DNA of 64,000 bases from Escherichia phage vB-Eco-KMB43, in sequence record OR525698.1; one strand, written 5' to 3'. This document shows, piece by piece, positions 43,353 to 53,061 of this stretch; within the stretch, counting starts at the first letter, position 1, and each line of letters starts with the position of its first letter. A model generated the notes under the pieces. It saw nothing but the letters and a program-made list of their open reading frames with translations. It was not told the origin of the DNA and did no database searches. A program made the position numbers and the translations under genes.

Positions 43353-45058
43353 TGACAGAAACTAAACCTATGTTAAAATTTGTTGTTCCTGTAAAAAAAT
43401 TAGAGATAAACGGGAAACATATCAAGATCCCAAAAATGGGGATTAAGCAACATCGATTATTAAAAGATGTTCGTAGCTGTGATGAAACATTAAAGATTCT
43501 TCTTGATTCAATCTGTCCTGGGTTAAACGCTGCCGAGTCTGAATTGGTTATGCTTAACCTTTGTGCGTATGAAGAATTGCAAAAACTCAATAATTTCTCT
43601 TCTCAGATGAATGAGAAATTACGTGGTTTTGGTGTTATGATGGAACGTAGATTTGGTGTTGTCAGTAAAATGGCTAGCGGTATTGGTGCGATTGAAGAAG
43701 CACTGAAAAAACCGGAACAACCGCAAACAATGCCATCACCTCAGCCAGTTTTGCCTACTGTACCGGAACAGCCTAATAATGACAACTATCAAGGTCTTCC
43801 AAAGAAAAAACCAGATGTTGAGGAACGGAAGAAAAAGAACGCCGCAGATAAGCGCAATGCGGATTCTATGGAAAATCTTCTTAAAGTTGTTCGTGGAGGA
43901 TTTAAAGAAACCATAGGTATCTCTAATAAGGTCTTAGGGATGTTATTTAAGATCACCTTGACCGCTATGGCAGAAGCCGCAAAATGGGGCGCTATTTTGA
44001 TGGGTATTGTTTTTGCCATTGATACCCTTATGATTCATTTCAGATATTGGAGTGATTTATTCGAAACAAAATTTGATGAATTTATGGATAAAGCCGGAGA
44101 ATGGGCTGGACCCATTAGTGATATTCTAACAACTATTCGTCAAGTTCGAGATTATTGGTCTAAAGGTGAATATGGAGAATTAATTAAATCTCTTGTTATG
44201 GGTATTGGTGATGCATTCTATAAAACCTTTATCCAACTTGATCGAATTATCACTACTGGTATTGCTAAAATTCTTCGCATGATCCCTGGTATGGGTGATT
44301 ATGCCGATAAGTTAGAATATGGTGCTTTAAAATCTGCTGTCGCTCAAGGTTATACGCCAAATGAAAGAGAACTCGAATTAATGGATAAGGTCGAGTCTGA
44401 ACACGAAGAGGACAAATACGGGGAGCGTACTGGTTGGACCGGAAAAGCCCGTGATATTGGTGAGGCTATCGGTGACTCCATTAAAGATAAAGTTAACGAG
44501 GGTCTTGTTAGTCTGGGTTGGAGAGATCAAAAGGATGTTGACGCAGAGAAGCGACAAGAAGAATTAAAGCGCGGAGAATATGAGTCTGTTTCTGCTGAAC
44601 AACGATCTGCTAGTCGTAAACTTAGAATTAAAAGTGAGGGCGCGATCAACAATATTAATGAAGTTATGGAGAATTTGAGCGGTGACTATGACAAAGAAAG
44701 AATGGGAGAGTTGAAAAAGGATATTGATGTTTACCGTGAGCAAGTTCAAGATCCTACATTAGTTGAAAGTGATCGTTCTCAGTTAGAGCGTCTTATTGAA
44801 AAATTTGATGAGATGTATGCTGATAAAACTAAGGGTGTTGTGCAAACACAGCCGGTTCCTGCAACTGAAACGGAAACAGCAAAACAAGCGGAACGTACTG
44901 AACAAATGCAGAAACAAGCTGCAATCCAGAAACAAACGACAAATCAGACCTCAAACGTAAATAATACACAAATTGTAACAAACAATAGAACTATTAAACA
45001 GGGTGCACCAACAACTAGAATTGATGCCCCCGGTACAATTAATATGGGGAACTTTTAA
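43352..45058 (+). CDS. gp29: baseplate hub / tail-length determinant gp29-like protein
   Basis: 568 aa with central hydrophobic/helical segments; position between gp27 and gp48; no separate gp28-sized ORF present. Confidence 0.5.
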   Translation: MTETKPMLKFVVPVKKLEINGKHIKIPKMGIKQHRLLKDVRSCDETLKILLDSICPGLNAAESELVMLNLCAYEELQKLNNFSSQMNEKLRGFGVMMERRFGVVSKMASGIGAIEEALKKPEQPQTMPSPQPVLPTVPEQPNNDNYQGLPKKKPDVEERKKKNAADKRNADSMENLLKVVRGGFKETIGISNKVLGMLFKITLTAMAEAAKWGAILMGIVFAIDTLMIHFRYWSDLFETKFDEFMDKAGEWAGPISDILTTIRQVRDYWSKGEYGELIKSLVMGIGDAFYKTFIQLDRIITTGIAKILRMIPGMGDYADKLEYGALKSAVAQGYTPNERELELMDKVESEHEEDKYGERTGWTGKARDIGEAIGDSIKDKVNEGLVSLGWRDQKDVDAEKRQEELKRGEYESVSAEQRSASRKLRIKSEGAINNINEVMENLSGDYDKERMGELKKDIDVYREQVQDPTLVESDRSQLERLIEKFDEMYADKTKGVVQTQPVPATETETAKQAERTEQMQKQAAIQKQTTNQTSNVNNTQIVTNNRTIKQGAPTTRIDAPGTINMGNF

Positions 45059-46116
45059 TGAAAATTAGTGTTATCAATGATGCCGTTGATAGCTTTAAAG
45101 CGGGGGTTAAAACCTCCGCTGGTTTTACCTCAAAAAATAAAGGGAAAACATTAACCGCTCAATTCCCCGCTGAACGTGCTAGCGGTAATGATGCTAGCGG
45201 TTATTATATCAACGACTTATATAATAATGGTCTGTTATTCACTGCATACGATTACACCTCTCGTACTACTGGATCGCTGCGTGATTTCAGGAAAAAGAAA
45301 AATGTTGCTAGCGGTTTTGGTGGTAGCGTTAATATCGCTGGTTTTGATTTAAATTTGGGTGGGAGAAATGCTGCATTTGACCGAGAGGCAATTGCTAATA
45401 TTCTTCTTCCTCGTAGTCAATCTGACGTTGACGCTGCCAGCCATAAGTTTAATGATGTTGGTGAATCTGTTATTTCTCGCGGCGGTGGTACTTTAGGCGG
45501 TGCTCTTTCTAATATGGCATCTACTGCCGTTTTTGGTGGTATCGAAAGTATTACTGGTGGATACCTTGCCGATCACGGTGAACAGATTTATAATACTGCG
45601 CGAAGCATGTATGCGGGTGCTGATGCACGAACTAAAAACTACGTATGGCATCTAACCCCACGTAGTATTGAAGACCTTCGCAATATTCTGATCATATACG
45701 AAACGTTTTTAGAATTGTCTTATGGTTCTAGTGGCATTTCCAGCACCGCAAAAGAATTAAAAGCGGAAGTTGATGCGTGGTATAAAAATACACTATTGAG
45801 AAAATCCACCCCAGAGGAAGCGAAGAGAAATGATACTCTGTTTGAAGGGATCACCGATTTTCTATCAAACGTAATTACTGTATCTAACCCGACAATATGG
45901 ATGATCTCTAACTTCGGCAAGCGTACATCGTTTGAAGGGCGTAGCGATGCATTTGGTCCCGCTCAGATCTCAAGTGTACGTCTGGACAAGTCGCCTGATG
46001 GTAAGTTTAATGGCCTTGCTATTTCTCCTAACTTGCCGAGTACCTTTGTTCTGGAAGTATCATTTAGAGAGATCTTGACACTTTCCCGTGGTACTATATT
46101 TGGGAGTGCGGCATAA
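45058..46116 (+). CDS. gp48: baseplate tail-tube junction protein gp48
   Basis: 352 aa; C-terminal tube-like motif TFVLEVSFREI; synteny. Confidence 0.6.
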   Translation: MKISVINDAVDSFKAGVKTSAGFTSKNKGKTLTAQFPAERASGNDASGYYINDLYNNGLLFTAYDYTSRTTGSLRDFRKKKNVASGFGGSVNIAGFDLNLGGRNAAFDREAIANILLPRSQSDVDAASHKFNDVGESVISRGGGTLGGALSNMASTAVFGGIESITGGYLADHGEQIYNTARSMYAGADARTKNYVWHLTPRSIEDLRNILIIYETFLELSYGSSGISSTAKELKAEVDAWYKNTLLRKSTPEEAKRNDTLFEGITDFLSNVITVSNPTIWMISNFGKRTSFEGRSDAFGPAQISSVRLDKSPDGKFNGLAISPNLPSTFVLEVSFREILTLSRGTIFGSAA

Positions 46117-46646
46117 TGTTTGATTTAAATGACTTTAACGAACAAGCCGCTAACCTTGACTTTCAGCGATCGAACTTATTCAGCGTGGCATTTGCCACCA
46201 CTCCAAGTAATAAGACACAAGCGATCCTAGAAAGTATGGGTGGTGCGGTATATGATATTATACCAAATGCATTAAATGACTATTTCGGGATTACTCGTGG
46301 TGATTATACTGACGCATTAACAAATCTTGCTGTGCAGGGTGTTAGGCGTGCTGTTGATTCATCTGGTGTCAAAAAGTATCTTTTAGGTGCAATGTCATCC
46401 CGCGTAGTTCAATCTCTTCTGGGGCAATTTGATGTTGGTACATATGCGCTTGACTGGTTCAATCTGGCATATAAGACAAGCGGTCTTCTGGTGTATGCTG
46501 TTAAGGTTCCAGAAAACAGATTGAATTATGAAATGGACCGTAACCACAATGCGCCAAACATTCGATTAATGGTAAGTGTCTGGAAGAAAAAGATGGTCTT
46601 AAGCTGTCTGATGTGTATATTTGTACAGAGACTGAATTTACTTTAA
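46116..46646 (+). CDS. gp54: gp54-like tail-tube initiator, N-terminal segment (frame interrupted)
   Basis: N-terminus MFDLNDFNEQAANLDFQRSNLFSVAF parallels gp19 N-terminus; last ~18 codons look like out-of-frame read-through. Confidence 0.45.
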   Translation: MFDLNDFNEQAANLDFQRSNLFSVAFATTPSNKTQAILESMGGAVYDIIPNALNDYFGITRGDYTDALTNLAVQGVRRAVDSSGVKKYLLGAMSSRVVQSLLGQFDVGTYALDWFNLAYKTSGLLVYAVKVPENRLNYEMDRNHNAPNIRLMVSVWKKKMVLSCLMCIFVQRLNLL

Positions 46647-46867
46647 ATGGTAAAGTCTTTAAATTTAAAAATCCAATGTATACTTCTGACCCCATTATCG
46701 ATGACGCTGATTTCTTGAGTCATCATTATCACGATCCTAGTGTAGACTTCCATGATTTCCCAGCTTTTATTATGGATTGGGCTACAGGATTAAGAAAAAC
46801 TATTGCACTGGATACACCGGAAGGTACTATCTATGGTGGAATTAACATATTGGATCGCCTATCATGA
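46613..46867 (+). other. middle open frame within the gp54 region (frame 2, GTG-initiated in ORF track)
   Basis: frame open from 46544 to 46867, overlapping the 3' end of the previous segment by ~100 nt. Confidence 0.3.
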
Positions 46868-46972
46868 ATGACGCATTAACATCATTTCGCGGGATGCGCA
46901 AGGAAGCGGAAGAAAACCCGATTGATAAACTTAACAAATTAGATAAACGGACGTGATTTCGATCCGCTTGTA

Positions 46973-47425
46973 TTGAGCTTTAGAATGGACTCTAGCGCAT
47001 CAAACTATCGAGCAATGCAGGATTGGGTTAACTCAGTAGAAGACCCCGTTACAGGGCTTCGTGCGCTTCCTGTTGACGTTGAAGCAGATATTCAGGTTAA
47101 CTTACATAACCGAATGGGAGTTCCTCACACGATCATGATGTTTAATGGTTGTGTTCCTGTTGGTGTGAGTGCACCGGAATTAACCTATGAAAATAACAAC
47201 GAAATAACAACATTCGATGTTACTTTCGCATATCGTTCTATGCAAACTGGTGCTGTAGGAGAGCAAGCCGCGCGAGAATGGATTGAGGATAAGGCAATAA
47301 ACGCAATAACAAACACTTTCGGCAATAATTTACTTGATAGTGGGTTATCTGCTGCTGGTAATGCTTTATCGCGTCTAAATGGCGTTGGTGGGCGTGTGGT
47401 GAATACTGTCACTAACTGGTTCTGA
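46973..47425 (+). CDS. gp54: gp54-like tail-tube initiator, C-terminal segment
   Basis: contains tube C-terminal motif PELTYENNNEITTFDVTFAY paralleling gp19 EVTLDWEQNNEVETFEVTFAI; frame open from 46943. Confidence 0.45.
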   Translation: MSFRMDSSASNYRAMQDWVNSVEDPVTGLRALPVDVEADIQVNLHNRMGVPHTIMMFNGCVPVGVSAPELTYENNNEITTFDVTFAYRSMQTGAVGEQAAREWIEDKAINAITNTFGNNLLDSGLSAAGNALSRLNGVGGRVVNTVTNWF

Positions 47426-47433
47426 TAATCGAA

Positions 47434-47460
47434 AGGCGGGGATTATCCCCGCCTTTTTAT
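47434..47460 (+). terminator. rho-independent terminator after gene 54
   Basis: AGGCGGGGATTATCCCCGCCT hairpin followed by TTTTTATTTT. Confidence 0.65.
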
Positions 47461-47942
47461 TTTGCTAAATCATTGCAATATTTTAGTGCCTTAGTTTGAA
47501 ATTCTGCGCTGTTAAGTTCTTCATAACGGTCATAATCACCGTTTAATGCTGCTTTTCTTGCTTCTTGCTCTATCTGCATGTCAGACATGATAATACAGCG
47601 ATCCCGTGCTTTCATCTTCTCAAGTTGTATAAACTCTTCTTTCTGTTTGCGCAATTCTTCTTGACGCTTCTTTTCTTCTCGTGCTTTCTCTTCCCGCGCT
47701 TCTTTGATTGCATCCTTGAACATCTGCGTTTGTGGTGCTAAACCAACTTTAACGCGACCCACGTCTCGACGTTCCATTTTAGAAATAAAGCATGATTCGA
47801 TCTGATCATCACTTGCATATGCTGCTTTACATTCACGAAGCAAGAAAACCGGATCTGATTTAGCATTCATCATAGCTTCCATGTTAGCACAACCAGTAAG
47901 CATGAATGCAGACGCAAGACCAATTAGTTTAATCATTTTCAT
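47457..47942 (-). CDS. predicted lipoprotein with charged coiled-coil region
   Basis: 161 aa; signal peptide plus lipobox LTGC (MKMIKLIGLASAFMLTGC); Lys/Glu-rich helical segment. Confidence 0.5.
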   Translation of the reverse strand: MKMIKLIGLASAFMLTGCANMEAMMNAKSDPVFLLRECKAAYASDDQIESCFISKMERRDVGRVKVGLAPQTQMFKDAIKEAREEKAREEKKRQEELRKQKEEFIQLEKMKARDRCIIMSDMQIEQEARKAALNGDYDRYEELNSAEFQTKALKYCNDLAK

Positions 47943-48763
47943 TTAGTCACCTCACCGAAAATTGTAAATTGTCTACGATTCTCATCGCCGAAAGATTCTA
48001 CTACGTCGTTTACCTTGACGCAAGTCCCGCGCGGTAAAATTACTTCACATTCGCAAGGATTCCATGCAATTGACCCAACAACAAAACCTTTATGATCTTT
48101 TACGTCAATTACCCACGATACATTACAAGAATGTTGCATCTTTCCGGTCATCGATTCATATCGATTCTCACAATAAAGGCTAGTGCTGTTTGATAGCCAT
48201 CCTCCAAAGATGATCGGTGTCATGCTGGTCGATACAAAGTTTTTAAAGGTAAACTCCTTATCTTCAATGATGCGCTCTATTGTCTGAATGTCAAGATGTT
48301 GACCGCGATAAAGAGTACCGTTTAACTTTTCGGTTTTATCCATGACACAATCCATCAAATCGACAATCTCTGATATCTCGTCGGTCATGTCTTCTTCCCC
48401 TAAGAGAGCACCATTTACCCATTCGTATTGTTCAGATACATAATCACAGATTGCATTATATTCTGCTGGGGTTATGTTGTTATGTTTGTAATGTTTGAAT
48501 ACATTATCTCCAAAGTCTTCGGAATGTACTTCATACATCACATTAATGATTTTCTTGACAAATCCATAATCTTGTGTCTCGCGCTCAAGGAAGCGGATAA
48601 CCTTCACATAATCATCAAAGTTAATCTGATCGCTGATCATCTCAGTGATCATGTAACCATTAATCCCCTCAATGTCATATGTTTCAATATAATTGTCCAT
48701 ACGTTCCATCATTGATTCGCGTGATTCTTCCGAAAGACGAAAATCCTGTAATTTCTTGAACAT
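47939..48763 (-). CDS. ADP-ribosyltransferase, Alt-like paralogue (short)
   Basis: 274 aa; R-S-ExE motifs TLYRGQHL, FVSTSMTP, CECEVILPRG shared with the Alt ORF. Confidence 0.55.
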   Translation of the reverse strand: MFKKLQDFRLSEESRESMMERMDNYIETYDIEGINGYMITEMISDQINFDDYVKVIRFLERETQDYGFVKKIINVMYEVHSEDFGDNVFKHYKHNNITPAEYNAICDYVSEQYEWVNGALLGEEDMTDEISEIVDLMDCVMDKTEKLNGTLYRGQHLDIQTIERIIEDKEFTFKNFVSTSMTPIIFGGWLSNSTSLYCENRYESMTGKMQHSCNVSWVIDVKDHKGFVVGSIAWNPCECEVILPRGTCVKVNDVVESFGDENRRQFTIFGEVTK

Positions 48764-48842
48764 TTTAAACCTCCCATATAACAGAAAACGGGGCTAGTAT
48801 AAAACTAGTCCCCGTTTGAGTCAACCATTATTTCTTAAAAAA
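48764..48842 (-). promoter_or_regulatory. intergenic hairpin plus sigma70-like promoter (minus strand) between alt and the alt-like gene
   Basis: on minus strand TTGACT (plus 48809-48814), 17-bp spacer, TATACT (plus 48786-48791); imperfect palindrome AACGGGGCTAGT..ACTAGTCCCCGTT. Confidence 0.4.
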
Positions 48843-50894
48843 TTACATTTTAAATTTATCTGGCATTGCGTCTACAGATACCAGATCAGCGATAAGCTGA
48901 CGTAGAGTTGCCTTATCTGCTTTCTTACGTTCGGTTTTAGCTTCGCTAATGAAGCTGGAGAAAGACAGGTCAGAAGCAGGTTTAATAACACCTTCACGGA
49001 TGAATGCATCACCGTCTGCGATCATCTCGCCAGATTCTTGTAATGCTGCCAGTTCATTTTTGTTCATAATATGTGCCTCAATGTAATAAGTTTCTTGTGA
49101 ATCCGTCGATGCCGTAGCACGAGTTACCGTATCAAAGGATAACACAACACCGCGAGGAAGTAAAATCTCGCATTCTTTGTAAGCAAATGCTTTGTTACCT
49201 ACTGGCAACACAGGGATGTTTTCCGCGCCAGCAATGGAGAAAGCAACATTAGCGCCACCTTCACCGCGAGAGCCAGCCATAGAATCAACACCAGCAACGG
49301 CACTAGCCACGTTTGCATTCCAGCCGCCAAAAATGTTAGGTGCAAGGGAAGTGCTCACATAGTTTTTAAAGTAAAACGCTTTTTGCTTACGTGCAGTTTC
49401 CCACATTTGAGTCCGGAAGTCCATACCACGATACAGAATAGTACCCGGATCAAGTTTAACGCCATAGTTGGAGAAGGCATTATCCAGTGCATCGCACATC
49501 TTGACCAATTCTTCTGGATCTGCGATGCCTTCAAACTCTTCCAGCTTACGATCAGTTAGGAAGTTGTTCATATTGATGTATGCTGCATCGGCATATTCGC
49601 TCAATACAAAACCTTCCGCGCCCGGCAGATCAAGATCAATATCTGCCATCATTTCACCCATGTTGCTAGCAATTGCTTCAAACATACCGGAAGCAACATT
49701 ACGTAGGGCATCGGTTTTAATCTGGGTGATATGACTACGCAGCATTTCAGCTTTTACATCTGCTGGCATAGACTGGTCTACTCGATCCATTGCCAGGGCG
49801 GTGATCTTGTTTTCGAATACTTCCTCGCTCATGATTTCTTTTAAGCGTTTGATTGATGCTGCGATAACTTCCGCAGACAACGGATCATATTGATCCTGAA
49901 CTTTTACCAGTTCGCTTACTGCGTATTTTGCATCTGCTTCGCTTTCAAAAATAGTACGCATGAAACCATAGCGAGTGATAATATCACTTGTCCAGTCATT
50001 CAGAGAACGGGCGGTTGAACGTTCTAATGCTTGACGATCAATCAGAGTATTAAACTGTTTCTTAGGTTCGGCTTCGGTGATATCTTCTTCCGGTTTAAGA
50101 TTAATTTTTTCTGGATGATTCACATAGTCGCTGTTATAGGTCGCTTGAGTTTTCAGCATTTCTTCTTTAGTCAAACGAGATTTAGCCGCTACGCGTTGTT
50201 CTGCTTCCGCGTTTCGTTCTTCTTCTGACACAAGACTAGCCGCATACGCCTCATCTTTAGTCAGAGATTCACCAGTAGCCTTAGATACCCAGCGATCACC
50301 TAAATCACTTTCTACTTTAGTGAACAAGGATTCATCAAGTTTAATCCCTTTAATCTTATCAATCGCCATCCCGCGACGCTTGACAACAACTAAAGCGATC
50401 TTTTTGCTGGTCATTACTTCCTGCTGGAATACTTCAAACTTCGGTGTACGACGCACCAAACGCTCTATAACGCGCTTAACCAGTTCGGTCTTACCTTTCA
50501 TGCGGGATACGTTAAAACGGAACATAACAGCGTCTAATTGCGCTTTACGGGCTGTTTCCATAACCACATCAAAAGCACTTGCCATAACTGCAATCGGGTT
50601 ATCTCCTAGACCATTTTTAAGCTGTACAATACGACCGCTTTTGTTCATTTCGCACAGTACAACATGTGCGGTCTTGTCACCCATACGAATGATTTTAGGT
50701 GTTTTGTTGGTGAAGTTACAAAGACGGACAATCACATCTTTATCGCGTGTCTGTACTGCAAAAAGCTGTTTAGGATTCTGCTTAGGCTTTAAGCACTGTA
50801 CCGGAGCAATACTGCCAAAGTTTTCTTCCTCTTCCGTCAACAGCCATTTCTCGAAAGATTCAATCATTAGATCGTCGATTTCTAAGTTAAACAT
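48843..50894 (-). CDS. alt: Alt ADP-ribosyltransferase
   Basis: 683 aa (T4 Alt 682 aa); ART motifs ILYRGMDF, YVSTSLAP, KECEILLPRG near C-terminus. Confidence 0.7.
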   Translation of the reverse strand: MFNLEIDDLMIESFEKWLLTEEEENFGSIAPVQCLKPKQNPKQLFAVQTRDKDVIVRLCNFTNKTPKIIRMGDKTAHVVLCEMNKSGRIVQLKNGLGDNPIAVMASAFDVVMETARKAQLDAVMFRFNVSRMKGKTELVKRVIERLVRRTPKFEVFQQEVMTSKKIALVVVKRRGMAIDKIKGIKLDESLFTKVESDLGDRWVSKATGESLTKDEAYAASLVSEEERNAEAEQRVAAKSRLTKEEMLKTQATYNSDYVNHPEKINLKPEEDITEAEPKKQFNTLIDRQALERSTARSLNDWTSDIITRYGFMRTIFESEADAKYAVSELVKVQDQYDPLSAEVIAASIKRLKEIMSEEVFENKITALAMDRVDQSMPADVKAEMLRSHITQIKTDALRNVASGMFEAIASNMGEMMADIDLDLPGAEGFVLSEYADAAYINMNNFLTDRKLEEFEGIADPEELVKMCDALDNAFSNYGVKLDPGTILYRGMDFRTQMWETARKQKAFYFKNYVSTSLAPNIFGGWNANVASAVAGVDSMAGSRGEGGANVAFSIAGAENIPVLPVGNKAFAYKECEILLPRGVVLSFDTVTRATASTDSQETYYIEAHIMNKNELAALQESGEMIADGDAFIREGVIKPASDLSFSSFISEAKTERKKADKATLRQLIADLVSVDAMPDKFKM

Positions 50895-50940
50895 TTTATA
50901 TCCTCTAGTTGATAACCTATAAACCTATATTTATGAAAAA

Positions 50941-50955
50941 GGGGCTTAACGCCCC
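50941..50955 (-). terminator. hairpin terminator (minus strand)
   Basis: GGGGCTTAACGCCCC palindrome with T-run on the minus strand. Confidence 0.5.
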
Positions 50956-50961
50956 CATTTA

Positions 50962-51498: not shown

Positions 51499-52014
51499 TT
51501 ATTTTTTTAATTGCTCATCTTGCAATAGGGCAATCACATGCTGGCGATGTTCTTCCGATTGAGGCACACCGAAAAAGTTTGTTTTGTAGAAATACTCTAA
51601 TCGGTCTTCTCGTGTGCTCTCTTCCATCATGATCGCGGGTAGTCCGAGATTTCGGAAACGTCGCTTTTCTGCTGGCGTAAAATCACTGTAATACAACATA
51701 GAATCATCATTACCAGCAATGCTAAACTCATCCTTCATAAAGGAGAATATTGCGTTTAAACGCTGTTTACCGTCCACGATTTCGATCTCATAGCGAGAGC
51801 CATCATCAATCTTAGCCATTGCGATAGCACCGACCGGAAAATCATTAATCAGGTTTTCGATAAACATACGTTTGTTTTCGGTGTCCCATACCAAAGGACG
51901 CTGATAATCTGGGTTCATGTTGATATAGCCATCTTCTAACCATGCTTCGTAAACAGAGATGACAAAGTTTTTAGTATTGGTATAGTAACGGCGTTTAGGC
52001 GTTAAACGGTTCAT
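51499..52014 (-). CDS. DUF262 / ParB-like nuclease-domain protein
   Basis: motifs DYQRPLVW and VDGKQR; ATG 52014 with AGGAGA SD, 1 nt after the upstream stop; ORF-track alternative start 52050. Confidence 0.55.
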   Translation of the reverse strand: MNRLTPKRRYYTNTKNFVISVYEAWLEDGYINMNPDYQRPLVWDTENKRMFIENLINDFPVGAIAMAKIDDGSRYEIEIVDGKQRLNAIFSFMKDEFSIAGNDDSMLYYSDFTPAEKRRFRNLGLPAIMMEESTREDRLEYFYKTNFFGVPQSEEHRQHVIALLQDEQLKK

Positions 52015-52015
52015 G

Positions 52016-52348
52016 TTATAGTCTCCTGAATGGATCATCACGTAAATCAATATCTTTTAAGAACTCATCCCATGAATGGCGGATATTGTTCTTAATTCTC
52101 CAGATAAGCGCAGGGATTGAACGCTCTCCCATCTGGAAGTATGGATCATATGATCCGTATGCCCAATATGCTACTACAATTCCACAATCAGCGCAATAGT
52201 ATTCTATTTCACTTGCTGGCGACCAAAGTCCATCAATATGATCGGTGATCTTGCTTTCGATGTTATGGCTATGACAATCAGGGCAACGGATGCAATGACC
52301 TTGTTTATCGTAATTTGACGTTAGCGAATACTTAAACAATCTCATCAT
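52016..52348 (-). CDS. zinc-ribbon protein (two CxxC pairs)
   Basis: 110 aa; CIRCPDC ... CADCG; start overlaps upstream stop (ATGA). Confidence 0.45.
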   Translation of the reverse strand: MMRLFKYSLTSNYDKQGHCIRCPDCHSHNIESKITDHIDGLWSPASEIEYYCADCGIVVAYWAYGSYDPYFQMGERSIPALIWRIKNNIRHSWDEFLKDIDLRDDPFRRL

Positions 52349-53061
52349 AGATCCTTATTTGCTTCAAATACTGCCTTTGCGAATCCTCGCGGGGTAAGTG
52401 ACCTGATAGTCTTTGTTTTCGTTCCTTTCCCGCCTAGCTTAGAATGCTGTTTACTGTACCCTTTATTAATCTGCAAAGGTTTCTTTTCTGGCATTATAAA
52501 GCCTTGTCCGGTCCATAAGCAAGTCTTTTTCGGGTACATATCACGGGCGGCGATATACTCAGGAAAAGTAGGATGTTTATCATCTTCCGGCAAATAACCG
52601 CCATATTCCCACGGATGGAACATATAATCAGGCTTACGCCACATGCTAGAGATAACGCTTACAGGATTCTCTATCATGTAGGGAACTCCTAGCCATTCAC
52701 CCAAATAAGCGGTTATTTTAGCTGCCCGTACATCATGAACTTGAATCAATGGTCCTTGCTCTCGTTTCTTTCGTTCAAAGTGTGCAGCGCCACTAACAGC
52801 TAAATTGGTGCACGGTGGGAATGCAAAGATAATATCCGGTTTCCCCCATTCAAGGTCCATTGCTCTTTCCAGCCAGTTCAAATCAATCCAGGTGTTTACA
52901 TAGGTAATGTTTGGATGTTCAAATCTGGTATTATACTTTTTGTATGTACCGTGGTCGGCGTCATCCGCATTAAAGCAGACTACCTTATGACCTGCTTTAG
53001 CCCATTCTAGCCCCATTATCCCCGATCCGTCAAAGTTACAGAATATTAATTTTTGTTTCAT
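52345..53061 (-). CDS. C5-cytosine methyltransferase-fold protein (atypical PCT motif)
   Basis: 238 aa; motif I-like FCNFDGSGIMG, motif IV-like DIIFAFPPCTNLAVSGA, motif VI-like MIENP; no obvious target-recognition domain. Confidence 0.5.
   Translation of the reverse strand: MKQKLIFCNFDGSGIMGLEWAKAGHKVVCFNADDADHGTYKKYNTRFEHPNITYVNTWIDLNWLERAMDLEWGKPDIIFAFPPCTNLAVSGAAHFERKKREQGPLIQVHDVRAAKITAYLGEWLGVPYMIENPVSVISSMWRKPDYMFHPWEYGGYLPEDDKHPTFPEYIAARDMYPKKTCLWTGQGFIMPEKKPLQINKGYSKQHSKLGGKGTKTKTIRSLTPRGFAKAVFEANKDL

Follow-up and report, generated by a model that had tools for sequence, protein, structure and literature searches.

Tandem genes for full-length Alt and a short Alt-type ADP-ribosyltransferase in Escherichia phage vB-Eco-KMB43

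A 64,000-nucleotide (nt) stretch of the genome of Escherichia phage vB-Eco-KMB43 (OR525698.1; hereafter the window) encodes two ADP-ribosyltransferases (ARTs) in tandem on its minus strand. The pair of open reading frames (ORFs) occupies positions 47939..50894, and consists of alt (48843..50894; 683 amino acids, aa) and a short paralogue immediately downstream (47939..48763; 274 aa), exactly where a preliminary description of the window, made from the sequence alone, had placed them. The short protein is the catalytic module of Alt, without the N-terminal part of ~390 aa and the C-terminal tail of ~75 aa, and its gene has a promoter of its own, which carries a stem-loop. On balance, we lean towards a scheme in which Alt is made late and packaged into the virion, while the short enzyme would be made early, be active and stay in the cell. 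The pair is real and well conserved, and it is probably functional. As a genome feature it is ordinary and built from known parts, namely an ART of the Alt/VIP2 family and a promoter-early stem-loop (PeSL).

The region is 98–99% identical to that of 58 genomes of Krischvirus coliphages (RB49-like, 'pseudo-T-even'). The short gene is RB49ORF183c, which RefSeq labels 'ADP-ribosyltransferase' in RB49, Phi1, JSE, GEC-3S and others; this gene, phrog_15144 of the Krischvirus phages, differs in nothing from the short ORF of the window. According to Nolan et al. (2006; PMC1524935), RB49ORF183c, 44RRORF188c and T4 alt.-1 and alt.-2 have the appearance of paralogous copies of the alt gene next to them. 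The tandem pair is thus already known, being annotated in RefSeq with its paralogy to alt published in 2006, and the promoter and stem-loop between the two genes belong to a class described in 2010. We found no functional study of RB49ORF183c in the literature. The points added here are incremental: the exact domain correspondence between the two proteins, the presence of a separate Mod gene, an overlapping terminator and promoter with covariation, the age and conservation of a cassette to which a coupled lipoprotein belongs, and the coincidence of the PeSL with a mosaic boundary.

Results

Two ORFs with the catalytic residues of the Alt family

The 683-aa ORF matches the Alt profile phrog_802 over its full length (residues 16–683; E=3e-179) and the Pfam family PF03496 (ADPrib_exo_Tox) over residues 425–610 with 37.5 bits, above the gathering cut-off of 23.4 bits. 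It is 99.6% identical to RB49 Alt and 26–27% identical to the Alt proteins of T4 and T2 across the full length. T4-type Alt proteins have ~680 aa, with a conserved N-terminal region and a C-terminal tail; the 683-aa ORF has this architecture, while the 274-aa ORF covers only Alt residues ~394–610. The gene lies between gene 30 / early ORFs on one side and genes 54 and 48 on the other, in synteny with GEC-3S, T2, T4 and a divergent relative (L009). The full-length alignment identifies it as the orthologue of T4 gpAlt, the injected arginine mono-ADP-ribosyltransferase of the Alt/VIP2 family, whose gene likewise adjoins genes 54 and 48 and likewise has a terminator and a late motif upstream. In T4, gpAlt is a scaffolding core protein of ~40 copies from which gp21 removes a small N-terminal peptide (PMC9958956), and it enters the host together with the phage DNA by injection (PMC3014915). 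No solved Alt structure was found, nor did literature searches turn up specific work on Alt packaging determinants.

The short ORF scores 59.3 bits against PF03496 (E=4e-16). Among the PHROGs, its best match is phrog_15144, 'ADP-ribosyltransferase' (E=3e-198), of which it is the type member, followed by phrog_802 (E=3e-45), with residues 8–268 aligned to profile positions 330–602 of 674. A direct BLASTP comparison of Alt and the short protein gives 37% identity over 109 aa (E=7e-17).

Read from the translations, Alt contains Y488-R489-G, YVSTS (512–516) and E574-C-E576-ILLPRG, and the short ORF contains Y152-R153-G, FVSTS (176–180) and E238-C-E240-VILPRG. The catalytic residues map to 49428..49430 (R489), 49173..49175 (E574) and 49167..49169 (E576) in alt, with S514-T-S516 between Arg and the Glu pair, and to 48305..48307 (R153), 48050..48052 (E238) and 48044..48046 (E240) in the short gene, with S178-T-S180 in the corresponding place. 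The catalytic arrangement that the preliminary description had seen in both ORFs is therefore present as Arg, STS and ExE, although the short ORF reads ECEVILPRG and not the VLLPRG given there. Its statement that both ORFs end with this arrangement does not hold for Alt, in which ~100 aa follow the motif.

The Arg, the S-T-S and both Glu residues are invariant in an alignment of five Alt proteins, including T4 Alt and both T2 copies, and the catalytic residues are also invariant within the short-ART family. Across 61 diverse relatives, the residues Y108, D138, R153, S178, E238, E240 and R245 (short ORF numbering) do not vary. The short ORF is a true Alt paralogue with its Glu pair intact. The motifs and domain matches support a predicted assignment of both ORFs to the R-S-ExE ARTs (R-S-E clade, PF03496, C2/C3/VIP2-like). 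An ExE in place of a QxE motif points to arginine specificity, as in the comparison of C3 with the iota and C2 enzymes. The conserved residues and the structural model described below suggest that the short ORF is very probably an active ART.

The short ART is the Alt catalytic module

To define how the two proteins correspond, a profile of the short-ART family was compared with one of 27 full-length Alt proteins using hhalign. Residues 65–273 of the short ART aligned to Alt 394–610 with a probability of 100% (E=8e-42). An AlphaFold model of the short ART, built from the 61-sequence alignment, was confident throughout, with a mean predicted local distance difference test score (pLDDT) of 93.4, a predicted template modelling score (pTM) of 0.89 and no segment below 50. 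Among the predicted viral structures of BFVD are full-length Alt proteins on whose C-terminal portion the 274-aa model can be superposed in its entirety, N-terminal helices included; one example is Alt of Shigella phage SP18 (query-normalised template modelling score, TMq, 0.80; 294 columns; root-mean-square deviation 3.7 Å).

The N-terminus of the short ART is therefore not a foreign domain, as the hhalign result, the match to the PHROG Alt profile from residue 8 onwards and the superposition of the whole model on Alt all indicate. This contradicts the earlier view that the short protein has a different N-terminal region. Compared with T4 gpAlt, it has the catalytic module and the Arg, STS and ExE residues in common, lacks the ~390 N-terminal and ~75 C-terminal residues, and is preceded by an early-type promoter.

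Because a sequence search of the Protein Data Bank with the short ART returned only marginal matches (Tre1 at E=0.07, SpvB and Vis), its model was compared with solved structures using Foldseek. The nearest neighbours were Vis, C3 (C3bot), Certhrax, iota-Ia, CDTa and C2-I, and the probability was 1.00 for Vis, C3bot, Certhrax, iota-Ia and CDTa. Vis has been crystallised with agmatine. The short ART thus has the fold and the catalytic motifs in common with the bacterial ART toxins of the C3, C2, iota and Vis types (PF03496), but its identity to the solved structures listed is only 14–21%, and its context is host takeover by a phage, whereas those toxins are secreted.

The short gene is conserved under purifying selection

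No amino acid separates the short protein from its counterparts in RB49, Phi1, GEC-3S and many other phages (100% identity), and across the 58 genomes the identity never drops below 97.1% (97–100%). The gene differs from that of GEC-3S at 18 nt and from that of RB49 at 15 nt, and none of these differences changes an amino acid. A more distant comparison is provided by the metagenome contig SRR24907467_737586 (L018), in which the short ART is 83% identical. The ratio of nonsynonymous to synonymous substitution rates (dN/dS) is 0.088 at a dS of 1.27, with values of 0.037 for the catalytic half and 0.10 for residues 65–145.

Relatives of the same length (271–288 aa) were found in very large protein collections down to 44–45% identity; a tblastn search of the phage collection with a 264-aa relative (P0011) returned no match at E<=1e-30. 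Wherever flanking DNA is available, the gene order is full-length Alt, short ART, an ORF of ~160 aa and the convergent gene 54. The short ART is clearly maintained by selection and is not a remnant. A missing Glu pair or a dead, truncated ORF had been named as observations that would speak against a functional paralogue; neither is seen here, with the Glu pair invariant and a dN/dS of 0.09.

A promoter and stem-loop overlap between the two genes

The spacer between alt and the short ORF is 79 nt long and reads AAGAAATAATGG-TTGACT-CAAACGGGGACTAGTTT-TATACT-AGCCCCGTTTTCTG…GGGAGG…ATG on the minus strand. A PeSL-type composite element at 48787..48824 was identified in it by scanning and folding, from the GEC-3S annotation and from relatives. 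The −35 hexamer TTGACT (48824..48819) and the −10 hexamer TATACT (48801..48796) have 10 of 12 matches and are separated by 17 nt, and an A-rich tract lies upstream of the −35 (48835..48827). The stem-loop (48816..48787) reads AACGGGG-A-CTAG / TTTTATA / CTAG-CCCCGTT and is followed by TTTTCTGTT: AACGGGG(A)CTAG pairs with CTAGCCCCGTT around the loop TTTTATA, and a T-run comes afterwards. The spacer folds with −20.9 kcal/mol (z=-2.2). A Shine-Dalgarno sequence, GGGAGG (48770..48775), lies 6 nt before the ATG of the short ORF and is conserved in relatives as GGGAG or GAGGA. Both the hairpin and the sigma70-like promoter of the preliminary description are thus present, but they are not two separate features, as the −10 hexamer sits in the loop and the 3' arm of the hairpin.

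A promoter is annotated at the same spot in GEC-3S. Five relatives, with flanking proteins 41–83% identical to the short ART of the window, have the element almost unchanged, and in four of the five the −35 is TTGACA. Across the aligned stems, 98.5% of the cells are paired. The only variable stem positions are two of the 11 pairs, in which both partners have changed (C-G/A-U/U-A and U-A/C-G); sliding the partners against each other lowers the pairing to 35–58%. This modest but consistent evidence from six sequences suggests that the stem-loop is a selected structure.

PeSLs were described in RB49 and phi1 as near-consensus sigma70 promoters with an AT-rich upstream tract and a G_n-loop-C_n stem-loop, either between the hexamers or overlapping the −10, and accessory genes have been proposed to recombine at them (Arbiol et al., 2010; Comeau et al., 2014; PMC2839356, PMC4122927). 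For other PeSLs of RB49 and phi1, lacZ reporters showed promoter activity of two whole elements and terminator activity of the stem-loop of a third (PMC2839356, PMC4122927). The element between alt and the short ART has the same parts: sigma70 hexamers with an AT-rich tract (AAGAAATAATGG-TTGACT-17-TATACT), a GGGG...CCCC stem that overlaps the −10, a Shine-Dalgarno sequence and ATG behind it, and a mosaic boundary. The other PeSLs of the window follow the same plan. It differs from the canonical elements in a longer, bulged stem with an A-U extension and a T-run, and its flanks differ from those of the very uniform canonical PeSLs of the window (AAAAAGTTG...ACACACATACCGAAACGAA). We could not establish whether the PeSLs listed by Arbiol et al. 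include one between alt and ORF183.

The mosaic boundary is visible in a comparison of L018 with 47100..50700 of the window. Nucleotide identity is ~94% in alt and falls to 63–77% in the short ART, immediately after the PeSL; at the protein level, the C-terminal 600 aa of Alt are 99% identical. The lipoprotein ORF downstream is 32–50% identical, and identity returns to 85–92% at the terminator and gene 54. Within the short ART, the N-terminal half is far more variable than the catalytic half (69–74% versus 96% aa identity). This pattern is consistent with an exchange of the cassette at the PeSL.

A transcript starting ~7 nt after TATACT would begin at the end of the 3' arm, so that the hairpin would be absent from it. 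A transcript arriving from alt would carry the complete hairpin followed by U-rich sequence, and should terminate. From the promoter class and its hexamers, we judge that the short gene is probably transcribed early.

Signals upstream of alt

A different set of signals precedes alt. An intrinsic-terminator-like hairpin, GGGGGC-GTTAA-GCCCC followed by T5 (50940..50956, minus strand), was found by scanning the sequence, with equivalents in L009 and before alt in T4. Transcripts that start at the early promoters 51239 and 51487 should end at it and not run on into alt. In L009 (5870..5890), the same terminator has its arms swapped, GCCCC-GTTAAA-GGGGC plus T5. Such an exchange of the arms, with the loop and the T-run kept, is fully compensatory, which supports a functional hairpin as judged from the two sequences.

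Between this hairpin and alt lies a late-promoter-like motif, CATAAATA (50928..50935, minus strand), 34 nt upstream of the alt ATG. Its counterparts are AATAAATA at the same position in L009 and TATAAATA before T4 alt, with the consensus (C/A/T)ATAAATA. The motif occurs 14 times on the plus strand, which carries the late genes, and three times on the minus strand. Because the count alone is not significant, the late-promoter call rests on position and conservation.

Early-type promoters cluster on the minus strand between 51 and 64 kb. Each early ORF upstream of alt lies behind a very uniform PeSL, AAAAAGTTG-TTGACA-GGGGA…TCCCC-TATAAT-ACACACATACCGAAACGAA…GGAGAATCAAAATG. These ORFs include one of 183 aa (51499..52050, minus strand) with a GmrSD_N/DUF262 domain (Pfam E=5e-20, ~half of the profile length) and one of 238 aa (52345..53061, minus strand) annotated as a DNA methyltransferase in GEC-3S.

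Relationship to Mod genes and to tandem Alt genes of T-even phages

The preliminary description had compared the short paralogue with T4 ModA and ModB, and had suggested an alignment with these and with Alt. Such a comparison shows homology to Alt in both the hhalign and the BLASTP results given above, but no similarity to the Mod proteins: BLASTP of the short ART against ModA and ModB gave nothing (E>0.4), it has no match to the Mod family phrog_832, and no Mod protein is among its top 50 structural neighbours. With BLASTP, PHROG and structure all negative, kinship with ModA and ModB was rejected. T4 ModA and ModB, which are early, non-packaged enzymes, resemble the short ART in their small size and in a predicted R-S-ExE site and predicted early intracellular synthesis, yet they belong to a different family, and the analogy is at most functional.

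Krischvirus phages have a Mod-family gene of their own. An ORF of 182 aa (…YRG…ERE…) lies at the position of T4 mod, near homologues of srd and dda; it was located at L006 37698..38246 (minus strand; ~86.7–87.2 kb in RB49, OZ035808), between the srd-like and a downstream ORF. The RB49 protein matches T4 ModB at E=1e-7 and phrog_832 at E=5e-21. The short ART adjoins alt and does not share this position beside srd and dda. The ART inventory of Krischvirus is thus Alt, the short Alt-type enzyme and a single Mod, as compared with Alt, ModA and ModB in T4. The idea that Krischvirus lacks Mod and uses the short ART as its replacement was rejected, as RB49 has a Mod-family ORF.

Parallels to the short gene are found downstream of alt in the T-even phages. 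T2 and many other T-even phages have two tandem full-length Alt genes, 3 nt apart. Like the short ART, the second copy of T2 is a paralogue immediately downstream of alt and before gene 54; in contrast to it, this copy has the full length of 685 aa and follows alt directly, with neither promoter nor terminator between them. T4 alt.-1 (61 aa) and alt.-2 (67 aa; L002 4817..5202) are colinear with residues ~1–60 and ~70–130 of the second Alt of T2 (L003 2747..4804). By this alignment, they are plainly decayed pieces of the tandem paralogue that T2 retains. What is left in T4 are N-terminal Alt fragments that have no catalytic domain; in Krischvirus only the catalytic part is left, and it has its own promoter. 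The comparison of T2, T4 and Krischvirus therefore shows three states of the paralogue downstream of alt, depending on lineage: full length, N-terminal debris or the catalytic module only. Annotations of short or 'split' Alt forms exist in T4-like phages of Acinetobacter and Aeromonas as well.

A coupled lipoprotein-like ORF and gene 54

The short ART is followed by a lipoprotein-like ORF of 161 aa (47457..47942, minus strand), with a signal peptide and a lipobox, L-T-G-C18. Its start overlaps the stop of the short ART in an ATGA (47939..47942), which suggests that the two are translationally coupled. All relatives have the ORF behind the short ART, with 30–46% identity; the Gly-Cys of the lipobox and four further Cys are invariant in the family, and the middle is charged and coiled-coil-like. 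It belongs to phrog_16112 (function unknown) and is annotated as 'putative lipoprotein' in phage W115. Domain searches including Pfam found no ADP-ribosylhydrolase (ARH), macro or other ADP-ribose-removing domain. The protein could be a superinfection-exclusion or envelope-modifying lipoprotein. Between the putative early cassette and the convergent late gene 54, a bidirectional terminator hairpin with a 12-bp stem was found by scanning (47431..47457); it is annotated on both strands in GEC-3S and is conserved in relatives.

Gene 54 itself (46116..47425) is anomalous in the window. As compared with RB49 and GEC-3S, 541 bp are missing at the gp28/gp29 junction (position 43568; RB49 OZ035808 22506..23046), and a 386-bp piece of this stretch (99.7% identical) lies at 46563..46948, where it splits gene 54 into the ORFs 46116..46646 and 46973..47425. 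An intron was considered and rejected: the 379-bp insertion has no Rfam match and is the relocated piece of the gp28/gp29 junction. In every matching record of the 58 Krischvirus records, the best match of the segment is at that junction. As the relocation would break two essential baseplate genes, it probably reflects an artefact, a misassembly or a variant that is not viable.

Discussion

The locus can be read as a tandem of Alt-family, arginine-type (R-S-ExE) mono-ADP-ribosyltransferases with two expression programmes. Its order would be a terminator and a late promoter, alt, a terminator within an early promoter, the short ART with the lipoprotein ORF, and a bidirectional terminator facing the convergent gene 54. 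By homology to T4 gpAlt, Alt would be synthesised late, enter the prohead core through its long N-terminal part, be trimmed by the prohead protease and be injected with the DNA. The short gene would be an old alt duplicate, cut back to the catalytic module and placed under a sigma70 early promoter of the PeSL type. As the stem-loop of this promoter lies upstream of the predicted start, late transcripts from alt would end at it, and early transcripts would not contain it. Infected cells would then make the short enzyme within minutes, alongside the coupled, exported lipoprotein. As a mono-ART of the arginine type (ExE), it would modify host proteins from within the cytoplasm, without having been carried in by the capsid. 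Early intracellular synthesis is suggested because the protein has no Alt N-terminal part and its gene has an early promoter. The proposal that the paralogue differs in timing from Alt is supported by sequence signals, with a terminator and ATAAATA before alt and a PeSL sigma70 promoter before the short gene. Most likely, the short ART has reached a timing like that of ModA and ModB by a different evolutionary route. Taken as a whole, with Alt late and packaged and an active short enzyme early and intracellular, we consider this scheme somewhat better than an even bet.

Several observations weigh against it. No transcript, virion-proteome or enzyme data for any Krischvirus were found in the literature. 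The late motif is not rare by composition, with ~10 expected per strand against the 14 and three observed, and before alt it starts with a C; little conservation of this first position has been reported for late promoters of RB49 (Nolan et al., 2006; PMC1524935). The hairpin of the PeSL is bulged and followed by only four consecutive T, so that a part of the late transcripts may run on into the short gene. With a Mod-family ART already present in the phage, the role of an early ART is not vacant. Finally, an early promoter does not exclude packaging; internal proteins of T4 are also made before late times. The N-terminus of the short protein has an L-S-E tripeptide, a possible prohead-protease site, which is not conserved in the family.

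The last two points would fit a short ART that is also a head-internal, injected virion protein, which would enter the head in association with Alt or by means of a short targeting peptide at its N-terminus. L-x-E is the type of tripeptide cut by the T4 prohead protease, and the N-terminus of the short protein, MFKKLQDFRLSE..., contains one. Two injected ARTs are probably found in T2, and the tandem full-length Alts of T2 and many T-even phages suggest that two packaged Alt-type enzymes may be common; many phage ARTs have been argued to be head-packaged (Iyer et al.). Yet the short ART has neither the conserved N-terminal ~390 aa nor the C-terminal tail common to Alt proteins, its N-terminal peptide varies among family members, a conserved terminator-like stem-loop and a sigma70 early promoter would cut it off from the late alt transcript, and it is co-translated with an exported lipoprotein and not with head genes. 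Packaging of the short ART is clearly unlikely on this evidence. Decay is less probable still. That the short ORF is a dying or catalytically dead remnant of a second Alt copy, as T4 alt.-1 and alt.-2 indeed are N-terminal fragments of a copy intact in T2, might be thought from its being far shorter than Alt, but its catalytic residues are all invariant, its predicted model is confident and complete, and it has kept its length and position down to 44% identity, with its own promoter and a strong Shine-Dalgarno sequence. The differences from GEC-3S and RB49 are all synonymous, and with a dN/dS of 0.09 at a dS of 1.27 a remnant is hardly tenable and was rejected on the selection data.

Two other readings start from the partner ORF. 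The short ART and the lipoprotein may form an exchangeable accessory cassette for conflict between host and phage, acting in the inactivation of defences or toxins or in superinfection exclusion, and swapped at the PeSL, rather than a tool for general takeover of RNA polymerase. The drop in identity to L018 after the PeSL with recovery at the terminator and gene 54, the more variable N-terminal half of the ART and the proposed role of PeSLs as recombination joints for accessory genes are in keeping with such a cassette. Unlike typical PeSL-flanked ORFans, however, it occurs with hardly any variation in every one of the 58 sequenced Krischvirus genomes, dN/dS is well below 1 in every measurable segment, and no defence-related partner or target is indicated, which leaves this reading rather unlikely as the explanation of the locus, although it is compatible with early intracellular synthesis of the short ART and does not exclude it. 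An ART toxin with an immunity protein, in which the downstream ORF neutralises the ART, would account for the tight ATGA overlap and the invariable co-occurrence of the two ORFs, and the short ART has one good structural neighbour in an effector-immunity pair of Listeria, namely the ART of this ART-ARH pair (8za7_B; target-normalised template modelling score, TMt, 0.75). But the partner is predicted to be exported (signal peptide, lipobox, conserved Cys) and so cannot meet a cytoplasmic enzyme, it has no ADP-ribose-removing domain, and it is not evident why a lytic phage should protect its host; we regard such a pair as highly improbable.

Phage ARTs are of renewed interest for their part in host takeover, for RNAylation by ModB and for their action on toxin-antitoxin and defence proteins. 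The Alt/short pair would offer a clean comparison of injected and early-made enzymes within one family, and a naturally minimal Alt catalytic module of 274 aa, predicted to fold stably, could suit the study of Alt-type target recognition. More tentatively, Krischvirus-type phages may have rebuilt the two-step strategy of T4, in which an injected ART is followed by early-made ones, by placing a trimmed Alt duplicate behind an insulating PeSL. The fast-diverging N-terminal helical half would then give this enzyme targets of its own, and an exported lipoprotein would accompany it in an exchangeable cassette.

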